DNA of 48,589 nt. Origin: Candidatus Yanofskybacteria bacterium CG10_big_fil_rev_8_21_14_0_10_46_23 (GTDB lineage: Bacteria > Patescibacteriota > Minisyncoccia > 2-02-FULL-40-12 > IGHO2-12-FULL-4). The position numbers and the translations under genes are program-made. Below are positions 3,376-44,070 of this stretch, one piece after another. Location: assembly GCA_002771135.1 (NCBI GenBank), contig PCXO01000012.1, forward strand, positions 21,694 through 70,282, written 5' to 3'. A model generated the notes under the pieces. It was not told the origin of the DNA and did no database searches. It worked only from the letters and a program-made list of their open reading frames with translations. Every line of letters begins with the position of its first letter. Position 1 is the stretch's first letter.

Positions 3376-3415
3376 CCAAAATCAAAGGCCCCCGCGCGGG
3401 GGCCTTTGATTTTGG
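3376..3415. terminator. Perfect 40-bp palindrome at the tmRNA 3' end
   Basis: CCAAAATCAAAGGCCCCCGC|GCGGGGGCCTTTGATTTTGG, overlapping the ssrA CCA. Confidence 0.75.
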
Positions 3416-3766
3416 TGGAGATGGTGGGAGTCGAACCCACGTGTAATAGGGCTATCAACGATGATCTACACGCTTAGTCATATCTGATTTCGACACAGCT
3501 AGGGATACGACACCATCACTGCGACGCTACTTTTTGTTTTTCAGCTCAGATTTGGAAAGCATTGGAAACAAATCGGAGATATAACTCGCTGATTGGCGCT
3601 CTGTTAGCGTAGTGAGTATCGGCTAGAGAGCGAAGAGTTAAGCGTAAGCTAACCCTTGGTTGTAGTTACTGTTTGCAACTAAAATTTTGAATCTTGTTTA
3701 AAGTGAGGGACTCTCTCACTGCGTGCCCATCTGTTAATTTGCTATTATCGAATCCGGGACATCCCC
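3413..3766 (-). ncRNA. ssrA: tmRNA; tag peptide ANSNYNQGLAYA* (3638-3676)
   Basis: 5' GGGGATG pairs with 3' CATCTCC-ACCA including a G3:U wobble; T-arm GTGGGTTCGACTCCCAC; resume codon GCA; adjacent to smpB. Confidence 0.96.
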
Positions 3767-20348: not shown

Positions 20349-21818
20349 ATGAGTAAAGAGCGGTTTTATATTACGACAACACTGCCCTATGTAAATGCCG
20401 AACCGCATATTGGTTTTGCTTTGGAAATTGTTCAGGCTGATGTCTTGGCCCGATTTGCCCGATCTCAAGGCAAAGAAGTTTTTTTCAATACGGGCACGGA
20501 CGAACACGGTTTGAAGATTTATCGCAAAGCTCAAGAAGCCGGGCAAGAATCTCAAGCTTATGTTGATGAATACGCAGTGAAATTTGATGAGCTGAAGACA
20601 ACACTCAATGTTAGTTACGATCACTTTATCCGGACTACCGCCCCCCAACATATAAAGGCTGCTCAAGAAATCTGGCGCCGGGTTGCGACCAAGGGGGATA
20701 TCTATAAAAAGAATTACAAAATAAAATATTGTGTTGGCTGTGAGTTGGAAAAAACCGACTCCGATCTGGAAAATGGCTGTTGCCCGATTCACCCCAATCA
20801 GCCGATTGAGATTATCGAAGAGGAGAATTATTTTTTTCGATTCTCAAAATATCAGAGCAAGCTTCTGGAGTTATATGAGAAACAGCCTGATTTTATCTTG
20901 CCGACCAAGCGACTAAATGAAATCAAGAAATTTGTCGCGGGGGGACTGGCTGATTTCAGCATCTCTCGCCTAAGGGCCAAGATGCCTTGGGGGGTACCGG
21001 TTCCGGATGATGCGGAGCATGTCATGTACGTCTGGTTTGATGCCTTGGTCAGCTATATCTCTACTCTCGACTGGCCGGAGAATGAGGATAGATTTAAACA
21101 ATTTTGGCCCGGCCTCCAGATTGCGGGCAAGGACAATCTCCGTCAGCAGGCGGCTATTTGGCAAGCCATGCTCCTGTCCGCCGACCTGCCTTCCTCAAAG
21201 CAGATTTTGATCCACGGTTTCATCACGAGCGAGGGCCAGAAGATGTCAAAGAGTCTTGGCAATGTTGTTTCTCCCAAGGCACTAGTTGATCAGTTTGGAG
21301 TTGATCCGGTTCGATATTTCTTATTGCGCGAGATTCCTTCCGATGAGGACGGGGACTTTTCTTTGACTCGATTGAAAGAGCGCTATACCAGTGATTTGGC
21401 TCATGGCTTGGGCAACTTAGTCCAGCGGGTTAGCACTCTAATCACGGACGACCTTGGGGGCCAATTTATCTTGAGTTCTCCCGGAACGGCGGTTGAAGAA
21501 AAAATTGCGTCAGTCTCGCGAACCGTCGAGGTAGCAATTAAAAATTTTCGGCTTCATGAGGCTTTAGCTCAAATTTGGACCTTGATTGATTCGGCCAATA
21601 GTTTGATTAGCGATCGTAAGCCCTGGGAGTTTAAAGAAGAATCGGAGAAGTTTGCCCGAGCCTTAAACGATATTGTCGCGCTGATTAAAGCCACCAATGA
21701 TCTTTTAGCCCCGTTTATTCCCGAGACGACAGAAAAAATAGAGAAAGTTTTCAATTTTAATCAGGGCGCGGAGATCAAAGTTTCGAAGGGAAAGGCGATC
21801 TTCCCGGCTTTGGAATAA
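20349..21818 (+). CDS. metG: Methionine-tRNA ligase
   Basis: PYVNAEPHIG, GTDEHG, YVWFDAL and KMSKS motifs. Confidence 0.97.
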   Translation: MSKERFYITTTLPYVNAEPHIGFALEIVQADVLARFARSQGKEVFFNTGTDEHGLKIYRKAQEAGQESQAYVDEYAVKFDELKTTLNVSYDHFIRTTAPQHIKAAQEIWRRVATKGDIYKKNYKIKYCVGCELEKTDSDLENGCCPIHPNQPIEIIEEENYFFRFSKYQSKLLELYEKQPDFILPTKRLNEIKKFVAGGLADFSISRLRAKMPWGVPVPDDAEHVMYVWFDALVSYISTLDWPENEDRFKQFWPGLQIAGKDNLRQQAAIWQAMLLSADLPSSKQILIHGFITSEGQKMSKSLGNVVSPKALVDQFGVDPVRYFLLREIPSDEDGDFSLTRLKERYTSDLAHGLGNLVQRVSTLITDDLGGQFILSSPGTAVEEKIASVSRTVEVAIKNFRLHEALAQIWTLIDSANSLISDRKPWEFKEESEKFARALNDIVALIKATNDLLAPFIPETTEKIEKVFNFNQGAEIKVSKGKAIFPALE

Positions 21819-25131: not shown

Positions 25132-25256
25132 GACTGCCCCAAAAACCGCATCTCGCCTTTTAACGGACCGAATTTTTTATAGTCTAAGAGGACGTTTTTG
25201 TTTTATAAATAAAACAAAAAGGCACCAACATTGGCGCCCGAAGGTTCAAAATTTAT

Positions 25257-25547
25257 CTATTCGTAGAAGCCGGCCTGATCGGCTCTTTCTTCGAGCCACT
25301 GCTTATGATCATCAGACCGCCTCTTCTCCAGGATTAGGTGATCAAAGACTTCTCGGTGGAACACAAGTTGCCCGATTTTGCGGAGGGCCTTCTCTTTCAG
25401 GCCCCATTGGAATATCAAGGCATCGTGGTTGCCATCTACCCTGCTCTTTAGGATGAGACGGCCAAGTATAACCAAGATTTCATCCGAGCCGGGTTCTCGG
25501 ATGTTTTCCTCTAGATTTTTCCAGATACTCTCTTTGGTTTCCGTCAT
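25257..25547 (-). CDS. Hypothetical protein
   Basis: AAGGAAGGAG SD; own TTTACA..TAAATT promoter. Confidence 0.65.
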   Translation of the reverse strand: MTETKESIWKNLEENIREPGSDEILVILGRLILKSRVDGNHDALIFQWGLKEKALRKIGQLVFHREVFDHLILEKRRSDDHKQWLEERADQAGFYE

Positions 25548-25616
25548 GTTAATGAGCTCCTTCCTTTAAAAATTTAAGCCATTTTTATTTATTTGTAAAC
25601 ATAATTTATAGAGTTC

Positions 25617-25651
25617 AAAACCACCCCGCCCCGCTATTTAGCGGGGCGGGG
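25617..25651 (-). terminator. Intrinsic terminator
   Basis: 12-bp stem CCCCGCCCCGCT/AGCGGGGCGGGG followed by TGGTTTT on the minus strand. Confidence 0.7.
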
Positions 25652-25700
25652 GGTAGATAAGAGTAAGGGGAGGTACAATATGTTACGGGGTGGAGTTTTA

Positions 25701-25757
25701 TCAGGTGTCCTCCGGCCCGGCCCGGATCAAGGGAATGTCGAACAAATAAGTTATCAT
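25701..25757 (-). CDS. Candidate 18-aa peptide MITYLFDIPLIRAGPEDT (putative arrest peptide)
   Basis: Manual translation; GTG-ATG starts 7-10 nt after an ECF-like -10; contains IRAGP. Confidence 0.45.
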   Translation of the reverse strand: MITYLFDIPLIRAGPEDT

Positions 25758-25764
25758 CACCCTC

Positions 25765-25824
25765 TAAGACGCAGATTCTTTGGCTGGGGTTTCGAGAAAC
25801 CTTTTCGGGGGTCTTTCCGTCTTA
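25765..25824. promoter_or_regulatory. Two divergent ECF-sigma-type promoters (GAAAC-N17-CGTCTTA on each strand)
   Basis: Plus strand: GAAAC 25796-25800 and CGTC 25818-25821. Minus strand: GAAAC 25793-25789 and CGTC 25771-25768. Directly upstream of an ECF sigma gene. Confidence 0.8.
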
Positions 25825-25891
25825 ATAAGCAATCGAGGTGTTTACCATTTTTATTTTTAGATGTTAAAATAGAAAGTAAATACACCGACTT

Positions 25892-26443
25892 ATGAACAAA
25901 GAAGCTATCCAATCTTTTCAATCGATTGTTGAACAATACGAGCGGAGGATTATAAATTTTCACTATCGTTTTGTCGGCAATCGTCAAGACGCGGAGGATT
26001 TGGCCCAAGAAACTTTCATAAAGGCTTATAAAAAGCTGGATACTTTAAAGGACAAGGCGAAATTAAGAAGCTGGCTTTTCCAGATTGCGCGTAACATTTC
26101 CATCGATCACTTTCGAAAACACAAAGACCGTGAGGTTGCCTTGGAAAATGAAGCGCTTCAGCATTTCGCCCAACTTGCTTTTGTTGATTATAAGACCCAA
26201 GAGACCCAAAATGCTCTGAAAGAGGAACTTGACGCTTGTCTAAAGCGTCTTAGTGACCAAGATCGCCGTATCATCAAGTTACTTTACTACGAGGGCTTTT
26301 CTTATAAGGAGATCAGCCAGACTCTGGGGATTAACCAGAATACCCTGAAGAGTCGGCTTCATCGAGTTCGCCAAGCCCTTTTAGCCGTGATAAGAAAAAA
26401 CGAATATATAAATGAGACTATTGCCCCAAATTATAGAGCCTAA
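25892..26443 (+). CDS. ECF RNA polymerase sigma-70 factor
   Basis: DAEDLAQETFIKAY, SWLFQIARN and SYKEISQTLGI..NTLKSRLHR motifs. Confidence 0.94.
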   Translation: MNKEAIQSFQSIVEQYERRIINFHYRFVGNRQDAEDLAQETFIKAYKKLDTLKDKAKLRSWLFQIARNISIDHFRKHKDREVALENEALQHFAQLAFVDYKTQETQNALKEELDACLKRLSDQDRRIIKLLYYEGFSYKEISQTLGINQNTLKSRLHRVRQALLAVIRKNEYINETIAPNYRA

Positions 26444-26858
26444 CCTCAACCCGGAAGCCAAGATTGATGCCTATATCCAATCTCGGATTCAAGAAATTGG
26501 TTGTTCTCACGGCGAGATTGAACCCTCGCTCCGTTTCGTTGAGAAAACGATGAGACGGGTTCAGCGGGTTCAACGCCAGCAGGATCTTCTGCGTGATTTT
26601 TATTTCGTCCTCTTGGCCTTGTTACCTTTTATCTTGTATCAAATTTGGATGAGCCTTCGCCGTGACTATTTCTCAGTTTCGGAGATGCCTTTTGGTCAGA
26701 TTATCTCTCAAATTTATGGCTATGCCTTGGCTCCGGTGGCAACCTTTGTAGTGTTTTCTCTCAGCCTGTTTTTAGTCATGGCTTATCTGATTAGAACCAA
26801 AGCTATCTTTGAGTCGGCTTTTATTCGACGCTTTCGTCGACATCCCGAAACTCTCTAA
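26412..26858 (+). CDS. Putative membrane anti-sigma factor
   Basis: Overlaps the sigma 3' end; PS..FVEKTM.RV motif followed by two TM segments. Confidence 0.6.
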   Translation: MRLLPQIIEPNLNPEAKIDAYIQSRIQEIGCSHGEIEPSLRFVEKTMRRVQRVQRQQDLLRDFYFVLLALLPFILYQIWMSLRRDYFSVSEMPFGQIISQIYGYALAPVATFVVFSLSLFLVMAYLIRTKAIFESAFIRRFRRHPETL

Positions 26859-26923
26859 CCCGGCAGTGCCCTTGACCAGACCCCGTTTAACTAAAAACGG
26901 TTTTTTTGTATGATAAGGCCCAG

Positions 26924-27700
26924 ATGATTATCGACGGCAACAGTTTGGCCCAGATTTGGCTCAAAGATTTAAAACACCAAATTACCCGGCTTTCCCCGCT
27001 GAGTCTGGGGATAGTTTTAGTTGGTGATGATCTTGGCTCAAAAATCTTTATTCAAAAGAAGAAGGCGGTTGGCGAATCTCTTGGCGTTGCCATCAAAATC
27101 TATAGTTTTGATAAAAATATTTCAATCCGGGATCTTCAAAAAGAGATTAAAATTATCGTTGCCTCCGTGTCCGGTTTGATTATTCAACTCCCCCTTCCGG
27201 GTTTTGAGGCGGAAGATATTGTTAACTTAATTCCAGTCCAGAAAGATGTTGATGCGCTGGGTGCTCAGCCAATAGTTTTAGCACCAGCCGTTTTGGTGGT
27301 CGAACGATTGATGAAAGAATTTGGCTTTAGTCGGCCGGACCTCAAAATAGCGGTCTTTGGGCAGGGCCAACTTATTGGTCAACCCGTAACCAAATGGGCC
27401 AAATCTAAAGGCTGGCAAGTCTCTCCAATTGATATTGATACGCCTCACCCGGAGGCACTTAGCGTTGAAGCGGACGTCGTTATCTCCGGTGTTGGCCAAC
27501 CGAATTTAATCACGGCGAAGATGATCAAAGCGGGGGCCTTGGTCATTGATTTCGGTTTTTCTCGAGAAAATAATCAAATAAAAGGTGATGTTGATTTCCA
27601 AGCTATTGAGTCAAAGGCGATAGTCACGCCGACACCGGGGGGAACGGGGCCATTGGTTGTGGCCGCGGTTTTCCAAAATCTCATTAATCTGAACAAATAA
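26924..27700 (+). CDS. folD: Methylene-THF dehydrogenase/cyclohydrolase
   Basis: MIIDG, GLIIQLPLP, KDVD, GDVDF and TPTPGGTGP motifs. Confidence 0.93.
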   Translation: MIIDGNSLAQIWLKDLKHQITRLSPLSLGIVLVGDDLGSKIFIQKKKAVGESLGVAIKIYSFDKNISIRDLQKEIKIIVASVSGLIIQLPLPGFEAEDIVNLIPVQKDVDALGAQPIVLAPAVLVVERLMKEFGFSRPDLKIAVFGQGQLIGQPVTKWAKSKGWQVSPIDIDTPHPEALSVEADVVISGVGQPNLITAKMIKAGALVIDFGFSRENNQIKGDVDFQAIESKAIVTPTPGGTGPLVVAAVFQNLINLNK

Positions 27701-31010: not shown

Positions 31011-31096
31011 TGGTGGGCGAGGTGGGATTCGAACCCACATGGTCAAAGACCACACGATTTTGAGTCGTGCGCGTAAGCCAATTCCGCCACTCGCCC
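31011..31096 (-). tRNA. tRNA-Leu(CAA)
   Basis: GGGCGAG/CTCGCCC acceptor, CACGA-CTCAAAA-TCGTG anticodon arm, long variable arm, encoded CCA. Confidence 0.96.
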
Positions 31097-41331: not shown

Positions 41332-41529
41332 GACTCCACTAAGTTATGTAGAATATTTCCAAGCCAATGAAATAGCGTGGTGTACCCGCCAGTGGATTTT
41401 ATGGATCTACTGGCGGTTACATTAGGAGATCCAACGTAGCCGTGTATTTTAAAAATTTGAACGTCCAATTTTTTGAACAGTTATAAAAAACAGTATCTTA
41501 CTTGATACTGTTATCCAGTCCTCCTTTTA

Positions 41530-41566
<37 letters not shown>

Positions 41567-41738
41567 TGTGGATAAGGCATGCAAGTCGAGCGAGTCCGCC
41601 TTCGGGCGAGACGAGCGGCAGACGAGTTAGTAACACCTTGGTACGTACCTCGAAGTCGGGCATAACTCCGCGAAAGCGGCGCTAATTCCCGATAGTCTGG
41701 CAACAGTAAAGTTTTTACGCTTCGAGAGCGGCCTAGGT

Positions 41739-41776
<38 letters not shown>

Positions 41777-42789
41777 GATGACGGGTAGGGGGTGTGAGAG
41801 CACGACCCCCAACGATGGCACTGAGACACGGGCCATACACCTACGGGTGGCCGCAGTCGAGAATATTCCGCAATGGGCGAAAGCCTGACGGAGCGACACC
41901 GCGTGCAGGAAGACGGCCTTAGGGTTGTAAACTGCTTTTTTCAGGGAAGAATTTTGACGGTACCTGACGAATAAGGGGCTGCTAACTTCGTGCCAGCAGC
42001 AGCGGTAATACGAAGGCCCCAAGCGTTATCCGGATTAACTGGGCGTAAAACGTGAGCAGCTGGTGATATTAGTCTGATGTTAAATCTTACCGCCCAACGG
42101 TAAGGCCGCATTGGAAACGGTATCACTTGAGTTGGTAAGAGGCATACAGAACGTGCGGTGTAGGGGTGAAATCCGTTGATATTGCACGGAATACCAAAAG
42201 CGAAGGCAGTATGCTGGTGCCAAACTGACGGTCAGTCACGAAAGCGTGGGGAGCGAATGGGATTAGATACCCCAGTAGTCCACGCTGTAAACGTTGCAGA
42301 CTCGCTATCGGGAGCATCGACCCTCTCGGTGGCCAAGCAAACGCGTTAAGTCTGCTGCCTGGGAAGTACGAGCGCAAGCTTAAAACTCAAAGGAATAGAC
42401 GGGGATTTGCACAAGCGGTGGATCATGTGGTTTAATTCGATTATAAGCGGAAAACCTCACCAAGGCTTGAAATCTAGCTGCAAGCTCTGAGAAACCAGAG
42501 CCGCCTTCGAGGGTGCTAGACAGGTGCTGCACGGTTGTCGTCAGCTCGTTCCGTGAGGAGTTCTCTTAAGTGAGGAAACGAGCGCAACCCCTATTGCGTG
42601 TTATACGTGTCACGCGAGACTGCCGAGGATAACTCGGAGGAAGGTGGGGATGACGTCAAATCAGCGTGGCCCTCTGATGCCTTGGGCTACACACATGATA
42701 CAATGGGTGGTACAACGGGTTGCCAAGTCGCGAGACGGAGCTAATCCTATCAAAGCCATCCTCAGTTCGGATTGGAGGCTGCAACTTGC

Positions 42790-42825
<36 letters not shown>

Positions 42826-42864
42826 TCACGCCGCGGTGAATACGTTCTCAAATCTTGTACTCAC

Positions 42865-43725
42865 AAATAAAAGCGCCCGGCCGCTTAATTTTCTAAGTGG
42901 TTAAAGTCCACTCCTCTATTACGTCAATAGAGCGTAGCTGAAGGATAGGCCCAAAACCGCGAGGTTGGGGCCGGAGGATCCGAAAGCAAAAGACAGCCTA
43001 ATTTTCTGTTAGTAAACAGAGGGATAATCGACTCATCGTTGGGTAGTGAGGATGAGGAAGGTTAGAAGTAATCCTATTAGGATGTCTAGAAGAGAAATTT
43101 AAGTAACCCGGGGAGATCTGATGCTGTCTCTTCTATGTTAAAATAGAAGAGTAATGTAACTTATGCAGCATCAGAAGTCAGCTGGTTCGTAGTAACCACA
43201 TTTATGTGGAGAAGGAACCTCCCCAATGTATGATTGACCCAAATTATATAGTCGGTCTGGTAGATGGAGAAGGAAGTTTCACCTCTTATGTGAGGGATCT
43301 CAAGCGATCCAAAGAGGTAAAAAGGAGAAATAGGATAGAGCCGAAGTTTTACCTCACTCTTATCGAGAGAGACAAAGAAATCCTGTATCGGCTAAAAAAA
43401 TATTTTGGGTGTGGAAATGTATATTTCCAAAAAGACTCTAGATTAAATCACCAGAATTGTTATCGATATGAAGTTGGGAGGAGAGAAGATCTTAATCAAA
43501 AGATTATTCCCTTCTTCAAGAAACATCGATTGAAATTGAAGTCAAAATCAAAGGACTTCTCACTTTTCTGCGAGATAATGAAGATGATCTCGAGAGGAGA
43601 ACATCTGGGAGATGAAGGTTTAGAGAAAATTCTAAAGATTAAGCAATCAATGCACTAGGGCTCGTCGTATGCGGGAAATCCGCAGGTACGATGGGGAAGC
43701 CTCTGTTGTGTTACCAACAAGCCTT
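42865..43725 (+). mobile_element. Group II-like intron (~861 nt) at ~E. coli 16S position 1399/1400
   Basis: Interrupts CTTGTACTCAC|TGCCCGTCA; domain V-like hairpin at 43661-43695; EBS1-like GTGAG (43046-43050) in a hairpin loop, complementary to the exon end CTCAC. Confidence 0.85.
43230..43658 (+). CDS. Intron-encoded single-motif LAGLIDADG homing endonuclease
   Basis: YIVGLVDGEGSF, LKKYFGCGNV and IIPFF...L..K..DF motifs. Confidence 0.93.
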   Translation: MIDPNYIVGLVDGEGSFTSYVRDLKRSKEVKRRNRIEPKFYLTLIERDKEILYRLKKYFGCGNVYFQKDSRLNHQNCYRYEVGRREDLNQKIIPFFKKHRLKLKSKSKDFSLFCEIMKMISRGEHLGDEGLEKILKIKQSMH

Positions 43726-44070
43726 TGCCCGTCAAGTCAAGGGAGCCGGGGATACCCGAAGGACCACGATTTCCTGTGGTACGACGGTAGATTCGGTGAC
43801 ATGGACTAAGTCGTAACAAGGCAGGGCTAGCGGAAGCTGGTCCTGGATCACTTACTTACTACTTTTTAAAAGTAGTGTATCGATAGAGCTCGTTGGGTGT
43901 TTGGTTCGGTTCGATAGCCGATCACACCCTACGATCTCTGCCTGACCGAGCTCAGGCTAACAGCCGGGGCTGATCCGAAGCCAACATCGGAGTTCGCTGA
44001 TATAACGAACAAAAATTTTATATTGAGGCACTGGGTAACAGTTTCAAGTTGGATCGATTGGACTACGTTC

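Follow-up and report, generated by a model that had tools for sequence, protein, structure and literature searches.

We analysed a window of 48,589 nucleotides (nt) from Candidatus Yanofskybacteria bacterium CG10_big_fil_rev_8_21_14_0_10_46_23, which is the whole stretch of contig PCXO01000012.1 between positions 21,694 and 70,282 (the positions below are counted from its first letter). This study concerns a locus of this tiny groundwater bacterium with a gene for an extracytoplasmic function (ECF) sigma factor, an overlapping gene for a candidate anti-sigma protein, and a short divergent unit on the other strand. This unit follows a second copy of the ECF-type promoter motif, contains a micro-open reading frame (micro-ORF) with an arrest-type core, and ends at an intrinsic terminator (Table 1).

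Table 1. Features of the sigma factor locus and of the divergent unit (positions in the window)
Feature	Position	Strand	Remark
-35 box GAAAC, sigma-facing ECF-type promoter	25796..25800	+	motif kept upstream of 29/29 orthologous sigma genes
-10 box CGTCTTA, sigma-facing promoter	25818..25824	+	22.5 bits, profile built from relatives
-35 box GAAAC, divergent ECF-type promoter	25789..25793	-	divergent copy in 21/29 loci
-10 box CGTCTTA, divergent promoter	25765..25771	-	24.4 bits, best site of the genome
Micro-ORF MITYLFDIPLIRAGPEDT and stop codon	25701..25757	-	homologous or analogous micro-ORFs in 20 relatives
Codons CGG GCC GGG CCG (R-A-G-P), arrest-type core	25713..25724	-	RAGP named in PMC12992588 (available part)
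Intrinsic terminator: 12-bp stem, loop of 4, U-rich tail	25614..25651	-	intact in stalled-ribosome folding
ECF sigma factor gene, 183 aa	25892..26443	+	Pfam, TIGR02937 and PDB matches
Conserved 148-aa protein with two hydrophobic segments, candidate anti-sigma	26412..26858	+	32-nt overlap with the sigma gene
Housekeeping-type promoter-like site TTTACC-18-TAAAAT with TG, in the sigma 5' untranslated region (UTR)	25841..25870	+	consensus match only
Terminator-like hairpin and T run after the sigma operon	26883..26910	+	
Orphan 96-aa ORF downstream of the unit's terminator	25257..25547	-	promoter-like site at 25599-25571

The first-pass annotation had described two back-to-back promoter motifs at this locus. 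Direct reading of the sequence and a pattern match both found them: GAAAC-N17-CGTCTTA occurs as an exact match at 25796-25824 (+) and at 25765-25793 (-), the gap between the two -35 boxes is 2 nt (GTTTC-GA-GAAAC, 25789-25800), and the two spacers are unrelated. With at most one mismatch there were four matches in the window versus 0.26 expected, and none of 100 dinucleotide shuffles gave four. In addition, the annotation had given AAC-N16/17-CGT as the promoter consensus of SigW/SigM/SigX-like ECF factors. This agrees with the available part of PMC5758882, according to which promoters of SigW/M/X/V-type factors have AAC in the -35 element and CGTC in the -10 element.

To find relatives of the locus, we searched for orthologues of the sigma factor, which were present with 48-57% identity in 23 relatives (all 22 sampled genomes of family f4 and one genome of the own family); some sigma match was found in 42 of 61 genomes. 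A scan of the named genome contigs gave the same orthologues again and five further loci. The relatives with orthologous loci are metagenome-assembled genomes of Candidatus Yanofskybacteria, Paceibacterota, Parcubacteria or the Patescibacteria group. These names support the first-pass annotation in placing the locus in the candidate phyla radiation (CPR). The motif [C/A]AAC[C/T]-N15-17-CGTC was found upstream of the sigma gene in all 29 loci, and 21 of the 29 have the second motif on the opposite strand together with a small unit. Thus, the comparison of upstream regions that the first-pass annotation had proposed recovered the double motif, and the second motif is not a peculiarity of this genome.

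Furthermore, the offset between the two copies ranges from 6 to 54 nt among relatives, and in L019 an inserted gene puts the unit about 600 nt away with its own promoter copy retained. Each copy holds a 16-17-nt spacer while the distance between the -35 boxes varies. Thus, the two copies behave as two promoters and not as one palindromic operator. The eight loci without the unit are L011, L013, L015, L017, L029, L030, L056, and L060, and in most of them the leuS stop codon lies directly before the sigma promoter. In most relatives that have the unit, its terminator adjoins the stop codon of the convergent leuS gene at a distance of a few nt, and there is no gene downstream. We also observed that a T-tract directly after AACC is frequent in the sigma-facing copies of L008-L031 (e.g., AACCTTTTT), and that the copies facing the micro-ORF in these loci mostly have C or G at this place. 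According to the part of PMC5758882 that is available, a T-tract at this place tunes the selectivity of ECF promoters in Bacillus subtilis.

The sigma factor (183 aa) has regions 2 and 4 only, and both this and its length agree with ECF (group 4) factors, which have about 180-200 aa. It matched the Pfam families Sigma70_r2 (9e-21), Sigma70_r4_2 (1e-16), and Sigma70_ECF (2e-9), and scored 115.5 bits against TIGR02937 (cut-off 42.9). It reached no equivalog cut-off of the SigW, SigM, and SigZ models, and its nearest solved structure is that of B. subtilis SigW (PDB 5wuq, 7e-32). The AAC/CGT motif that lies upstream of its own gene, as in the other orthologous loci, also points to an ECF factor. 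Meanwhile, an ORF of 101-147 aa that resembles the 148-aa partner comes after the sigma gene in 22 of 24 loci, and these proteins share the motifs IEPSxDFT and RGDYFS. The partner had no match in Pfam, NCBIfam, or PDB (the last searched by profile), and a single-sequence search returned near-identical copies only. It is labelled a candidate anti-sigma factor from the position of its gene.

The first-pass annotation had proposed a minus-strand unit of about 145 nt that is closed by a 12-bp terminator. This structure was borne out: the unit is about 140 nt long (142 nt by our measurement), and the terminator stem at 25651..25624 has 12 pairs, 11 of them G-C, with a 4-nt loop and the tail TGGTTTTGAA. 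Across relatives, the unit length is about 90-260 nt, and a terminator-like hairpin closes every unit. Whether the unit would be a small RNA (sRNA) or encode a micropeptide had been left as alternatives, and the results below favour the coding option and weaken that of a plain sRNA.

Each of the 21 units has a start codon 8-12 nt downstream of CGTC (ATG in 20 and GTG in one); in this window, the ATG starts 10 nt after this motif. The ORFs have 10-38 codons, and 5-22 residues precede the core. ORFs of 10-20 codons normally fall below the limits of gene callers. A typical peptide of the relatives reads M-x-Q-I-I-H-K-R-G-P-P, followed by 1-17 unrelated residues; as judged by eye, residues are conserved up to the second Pro, and beyond it the tails are unrelated to each other. 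For the four motif codons in 17 units, the proportion of synonymous differences (pS) was 0.71 and that of nonsynonymous differences (pN) was 0.13, giving a ratio of 0.19. Over seven codons, pN/pS was 0.42 in frame versus 1.58 and 2.07 in the other two frames. Third codon positions are free to vary, and Arg is encoded by five different codons. This substitution pattern indicates that selection acts on the peptide.

The arrest-type motif in the micro-ORF was not part of the earlier reading of the unit. Among the 21 units, the core is RGPP in 14, RSPP in two, RAGP in one (this window, IRAGP), TGPP in one, SRDQP in two, and RRGSR in one. Thus, 17 of the 21 have RGPP, RSPP, or RAGP, as RAPP-like arrest peptides do, and one more has TGPP. 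The available part of PMC12992588 describes RGPP as the most robust arrest core, refractory to elongation factor P (EF-P), and as the tetrapeptide that bacterial proteomes exclude most strongly; RSPP and RAGP (the SecM core) are members of this arrest-type set. TGPP is among the query motifs of PMC10987492 (available part). In addition, the six to seven residues before the core modulate arrest as a 'regulator module', as the accessible text of PMC10951233 states, and the five to eight conserved residues that precede the motif in the units match this published length. From the core and by analogy with these peptides, we infer that a ribosome may arrest on the micro-ORF. Tetrapeptide counts in the own proteome were all 0, but the controls AGPP and AAPP were equally 0, so these counts are uninformative on depletion. 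As to the divergent cores, the unit of L061 encodes MTEAVPRRGSR without Pro-Pro and keeps the C-rich box and the terminator. The units of L028 (genus g35) and L058 encode M-K-R-T-I-(Y/H)-...-S-R-D-Q-P in place of RGPP.

The arrest codons also have a place in the predicted RNA structure. In the relatives, they make up the 5' side of a hairpin. Compared with versions whose downstream part had been shuffled, 17 of 18 units gave a more stable fold (z < -1; mean -2.3). When each unit is folded separately, the wobble positions of the Gly and Pro codons are paired in 12-15 of 18 cases with differing pair types, although the pairs are canonical by construction. When the helix was given by hand to eight alignable units, 83% of the cells could pair versus 38-68% with slid partners. 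The whole unit of this window folds better than its shuffles (z -3.46), which is mostly the contribution of the terminator. No credible Rfam family was found on the unit, either in a gathering scan of the window or in an E-value scan of 25200-26000.

In many relatives, a box that resembles the 3' tail of 16S ribosomal RNA (rRNA) lies before the terminator: at least 9 of 12 positions match in 8 of 18 units versus 4.0% of background windows. The Arg-Gly codons pair with this box in several lineages, where it serves as the 3' arm. When the footprint of a stalled ribosome was masked in 18 units (equilibrium folding), the first hairpin was gone and no antiterminator appeared. The core terminator hairpin stayed in 18 of 18, with all counted pairs in 14 and 64-83% of them in four. 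We also considered whether the freed arm pairs with the sigma 5' UTR. This candidate was rejected: the mean z was -0.78 (mononucleotide shuffles), and one of 16 loci beat 95% of the windows of its locus.

The genome itself (571 kb in 13 contigs, 95% complete) offers a suitable context for a leaderless start. No Shine-Dalgarno enrichment was found before 342 long ORFs, and TATAAT-like hexamers show a sharp peak: in 65 of 441 long ORFs, one ends 6-9 nt upstream of the ATG. Messenger RNAs (mRNAs) without a leader therefore appear to be common in this genome. Furthermore, its 16S 3' tail is CACTTACTTAC, whereas it is CACCTCCTTTC in three f4 relatives; CCUCC is absent from the former, so that the anti-Shine-Dalgarno core is lost. 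Thus, a leaderless start fits the organism, given the missing enrichment, the altered 16S tail, and the TATAAT peak. For the unit, the mRNA is probably leaderless here, or has a leader of about 3 nt at most.

Two further observations concern translation and its start signals in this genome and its relatives. Upstream of the sigma ATG, at a distance of 7-12 nt, many orthologous sigma genes (L010, L021, L023, L025, L026, and others) have a TGnTATAAT-like box, which suggests a second, housekeeping promoter that would give a leaderless sigma mRNA besides the upstream ECF-type promoter. The 16S rRNA gene of the window (41525-43857) contains an interruption: beyond about 42860 the Rfam alignment becomes poor, and the true 3' part (GTCGTAACAAGG...GGATCAC) resumes near 43810, indicating an insertion of about 850 nt.

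To estimate the size of the regulon, we built a promoter profile from 40 sites, all taken from relatives and none from the own genome, and used a threshold of 17 bits. Only three hits reached it in the own genome, with 24.4, 23.7, and 22.5 bits, and the whole genome holds three exact copies of the motif. Thus, the visible regulon comprises three promoters at most and looks tiny. The third exact copy lies on contig C1 (3990-4018, minus strand; L001 1501-1529) and is the second-best site of the genome. The RNA predicted from it has about 50 nt and consists of a short unpaired 5' segment and a bidirectional terminator hairpin. This RNA overlaps, in antisense direction, the 3' end of a gene whose product has the mechanosensitive-channel transmembrane helix (PF05552), and there is no start codon at the 5' end of the RNA. 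In 26 f4 genomes, AACC-N15-17-CGTCTTA was judged no commoner than its reversed control (70 versus 54 hits). One extra site recurred in three g8 genomes, but in the two that were fetched it falls within a coding gene of 373 aa, and a wider regulon was rejected.

The combination of promoter and arrest-type ORF is also specific to this locus. An arrest-type motif occurs in 20 of 7774 small ATG-ORFs of the own genome, and the micro-ORF described here is the only one of these 20 with an ECF promoter. On contig C8, a second micro-ORF has RAGP and a TATAAT box, but it lies inside a 243-aa ORF and was set aside as chance. The same contig has a second, distant match to an ECF-like sigma factor (C8:33732-34241, minus strand; 27% identity, E 5e-14) with one in-frame TAA. 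None of eight loci with distant ECF paralogues had an arrest-type ORF upstream. The pattern of promoter plus RGPP was found in 21 of 105 genomes of the order, and the reversed control gave 17 hits; we judged 15 of the 21 hits to be genuine and six to be spurious, and the genuine ones, 14 from f4 and one from f1, are without exception at the sigma locus. In a sample of 401 genomes of the class, a stricter form of the pattern occurred in two, which both belong to f4.

Taken together, we propose that Yanofskybacteria-like CPR bacteria may possess a conserved module of three parts, namely a SigW-like sigma factor, a co-transcribed two-segment membrane protein as candidate anti-sigma factor, and a divergent, leaderless mini-mRNA that would trap a ribosome at its arrest core. 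We consider this proposal to have about an equal chance of being right or wrong. We infer transcription by this sigma factor, the leaderless start, the arrest, and the output as follows. The released sigma factor would make the unit RNA from the second copy of its own promoter motif, and the predicted 5' end of the RNA lies on the AUG of the micro-ORF or within about 3 nt of it. A ribosome would stall at R-G-P-P (here I-R-A-G-P), about 10 codons from the 5' end. In the relatives, the stalled ribosome would keep the first hairpin open and so free the C-rich 3' arm and the linker, a segment that in many of them resembles the 16S 3' tail, and the transcript would end at the intrinsic terminator. 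The output would then probably be the long-lived complex of ribosome and RNA, or else the RNA segment that the stall unmasks, and not the control of a downstream gene.

It should be noted that several results weigh against this proposal. The recognised core is absent from three of the 21 units (SRDQP twice and RRGSR once), and one of these keeps the downstream RNA architecture, so that the RNA may matter by itself. The unit is missing from 8 of the 29 loci and is therefore dispensable, and the related sequences are not independent, since several come from one genus. In addition, the hairpin of this window's own unit is no better than shuffles (z -0.12), and its own 16S-tail-like box is degenerate (7 of 12). 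RNAalifold found no pairs on a MAFFT alignment of 17 units, and covariation in the eight alignable units was not above shuffles (154/500 and 262/500). The leaderless start depends on the ECF rule for the distance from the -10 element, which we take to put the start codon within about 3 nt of the transcription start. No trans target of the unit RNA was found, and the 10 sequencing runs listed for 25200-27000 are all DNA metagenomes. Furthermore, according to the available part of PMC12992588, the RAPP/RGPP peptides described so far are small proteins of the secretory or membrane type, and the gene that they regulate lies downstream of them.

A more far-reaching form of the proposal is that the essentially single output of this ECF pathway is a leaderless mini-mRNA that jams one 70S ribosome, which would act as a translational brake or as ribosome parking under envelope stress. 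Cells of this kind are ultra-small and have very few ribosomes. As the core, the strongest one known for arrest, lies about 10 codons from the 5' end, only one ribosome would fit and there would be no collision to trigger rescue; in relatives that still use Shine-Dalgarno pairing, the stall would also expose an RNA segment that mimics the 16S 3' tail. We think that this form is rather unlikely.

Among the alternatives, the unit could be a plain ECF-dependent sRNA that acts in trans through its C-rich, 16S-tail-like linker, with an ORF that is incidental, or tolerated because its Arg-Gly-Pro-Pro codons pair with this linker. ECF-dependent sRNAs are a known kind, such as the sigma-E-dependent MicA, RybB, and MicL and the sigma-T-dependent GsrN. 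The frequency of the box among the units, which was scored against the f4 16S tail, and the unit of L061, which lacks Pro-Pro and keeps box and terminator, are what such an sRNA would explain. However, it would leave unexplained why the four motif codons have a pN/pS of 0.19 in frame as against 1.6-2.1 out of frame, with Arg written in five synonymous codons, and why the start codon keeps its distance from CGTC in every unit. Moreover, g8-type units keep RGPP though the box and the hairpin are separate there, and the own genome has lost both the 16S CCUCC and the box and keeps the RAGP ORF. An extended target was also not found by a 12-mer search: the complement of the box occurs exactly only at the unit itself in four genomes, and hits with at most one mismatch are no commoner than those of a control. 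The plain sRNA is therefore improbable in our view.

The order of short ORF, hairpin, and terminator resembles that of a leader-peptide attenuator, in which the stall would control read-through of the terminator into the 96-aa ORF here, or antisense into the 3' end of leuS in relatives. An ORF on the same strand does lie behind the terminator in this window, and leaderless short-ORF attenuators occur in mycobacteria (bioRxiv 10.1101/834739, available part). Attenuation is nevertheless disfavoured because the terminator stem persists in all 18 masked folds and no antiterminator forms, although a kinetic antiterminator may escape equilibrium folding. In most unit-bearing relatives, the terminator is followed by the stop codon of the convergent leuS gene. 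The 96-aa ORF, an orphan, has a promoter-like site to itself; it belongs to no family and found only itself among 5.8 billion proteins, and at its place the relatives have other, unrelated small ORFs or nothing. Thus, it is probably outside the conserved module, and we regard attenuation as quite improbable.

A released micropeptide of about 10-20 aa that acts, for example, on the sigma factor, its partner, or the envelope, with RGPP as a binding motif, would account for the conservation of residues before the motif (Q-I-I-H-K in several genera) and for the promoter motif common to the unit and the sigma gene, which suggests co-regulation. But conservation stops at the second Pro, where tails of 1-17 residues unrelated by eye begin, and the peptide of the own genome is very different, with the arrest-type core alone in common. 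RGPP is also the motif most avoided in bacterial proteins and impedes translation, as the available part of PMC12992588 describes. A released functional peptide thus has a slim chance in our opinion. Finally, it is barely credible that the second motif is a by-product (an inverted-repeat operator of a dimeric regulator or a chance mirror) and the unit a mere terminator region of its neighbours: the two copies of this window do mirror each other 2 nt apart, but this reading is largely refuted by the widely varying spacing in relatives, including the inserted gene of L019, and by the coding signature of the downstream ORF. The three exact copies in this genome, versus about 0.07 expected by chance (calculated for 12 fixed bases over 1.14 million positions), also speak against it.

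The proposed arrest unit shares features with several known systems. The closest are the RAPP-like arrest peptides (SecM, ApdA, ApdP, ApcA, CruR, and the RAPP/RGPP upstream ORFs of Streptomyces lividans). They have the same core, which ends the conserved part of the ORF, a short conserved stretch before the core, an unconserved sequence after the stall point, and arrest codons within a hairpin that a stalled ribosome would open. However, RAPP-like peptides have tens to a few hundred residues, and their arrest is relieved by a pulling force or a ligand, whereas the peptide of the unit fits into the exit tunnel. With 10-38 codons, the unit has no room for a signal peptide, a membrane segment, or an exposed sensor domain. 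Also unlike RAPP-like peptides, the unit is predicted to be leaderless, has an ECF-type promoter, and has nothing downstream in most relatives, where it ends at a terminator shared with the convergent leuS; in this window only the orphan ORF follows.

Arrest by peptides contained within the exit tunnel is known from ErmCL-type leaders. In the available part of PMC11890864, PepNL likewise shows that a peptide wholly inside the tunnel can arrest the ribosome, as we propose for the unit; but PepNL blocks termination at the stop codon and controls a downstream gene, whereas the unit would block peptide-bond formation at Pro. The polycysteine short ORFs of mycobacteria are also leaderless and act in regulation through ribosome behaviour (available part of bioRxiv 10.1101/834739). 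They sense the Cys supply and attenuate the genes of an operon, whereas the unit has an arrest core and neither a downstream operon nor a predicted antiterminator.

With respect to the sigma factor, the locus resembles the SigW/RsiW system and the SigM/SigX/SigV class: regions 2 and 4 only, AAC/CGTC with a 16-17-nt spacer, and a promoter upstream of the sigma gene itself. Unlike in SigW/RsiW, the partner here has neither a zinc-binding anti-sigma domain nor any family match, and at most three promoters are visible. As in the ECF-dependent sRNAs, there is a short, terminator-ended transcript from an ECF-type promoter that would be a main output of an envelope or general stress sigma factor. But those sRNAs are non-coding with defined seeds and targets, whereas the ORF of the unit is conserved and has an arrest core, and our searches gave no target for the unit. 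Our literature searches gave no account of a stand-alone arrest ORF that is leaderless and driven by an ECF factor, although the supplements of arrest-peptide surveys may list related ORFs; nor did they give anything usable on leaderless or Shine-Dalgarno-dependent translation in CPR bacteria. The nearest cases in print, as far as the available parts of the sources go, are some RAPP/RGPP upstream ORFs of Streptomyces that precede sigma factor genes (PMC12992588) and the leaderless polycysteine attenuators of mycobacteria (bioRxiv 10.1101/834739).

Elsewhere in the window, the Rfam scan found a transfer-messenger RNA gene at 3413-3766 (minus strand, 138 bits) and a transfer RNA gene at 31014-31096 (minus strand).

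Arrest peptides are known as sensors in cis before the gene that they control, and the targets of ECF factors are protein genes and a few sRNAs. The module described here would join both, with an arrest-type ORF that stands alone, is probably leaderless, and would be the main, perhaps the only, target of a stress sigma factor besides its own gene. Furthermore, the RNA of about 140 nt or less and one sigma factor make a short, synthesisable test object for RGPP arrest in about 10 residues, which also bears on leaderless loading and on the behaviour of CPR bacteria under envelope stress. The genomes of this lineage have about 0.6 Mb, and little regulation has been described there. If the arrest is true, it would widen the known uses of programmed stalling. 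If it is false, the unit would still be a conserved, co-regulated micro-gene in CPR bacteria.

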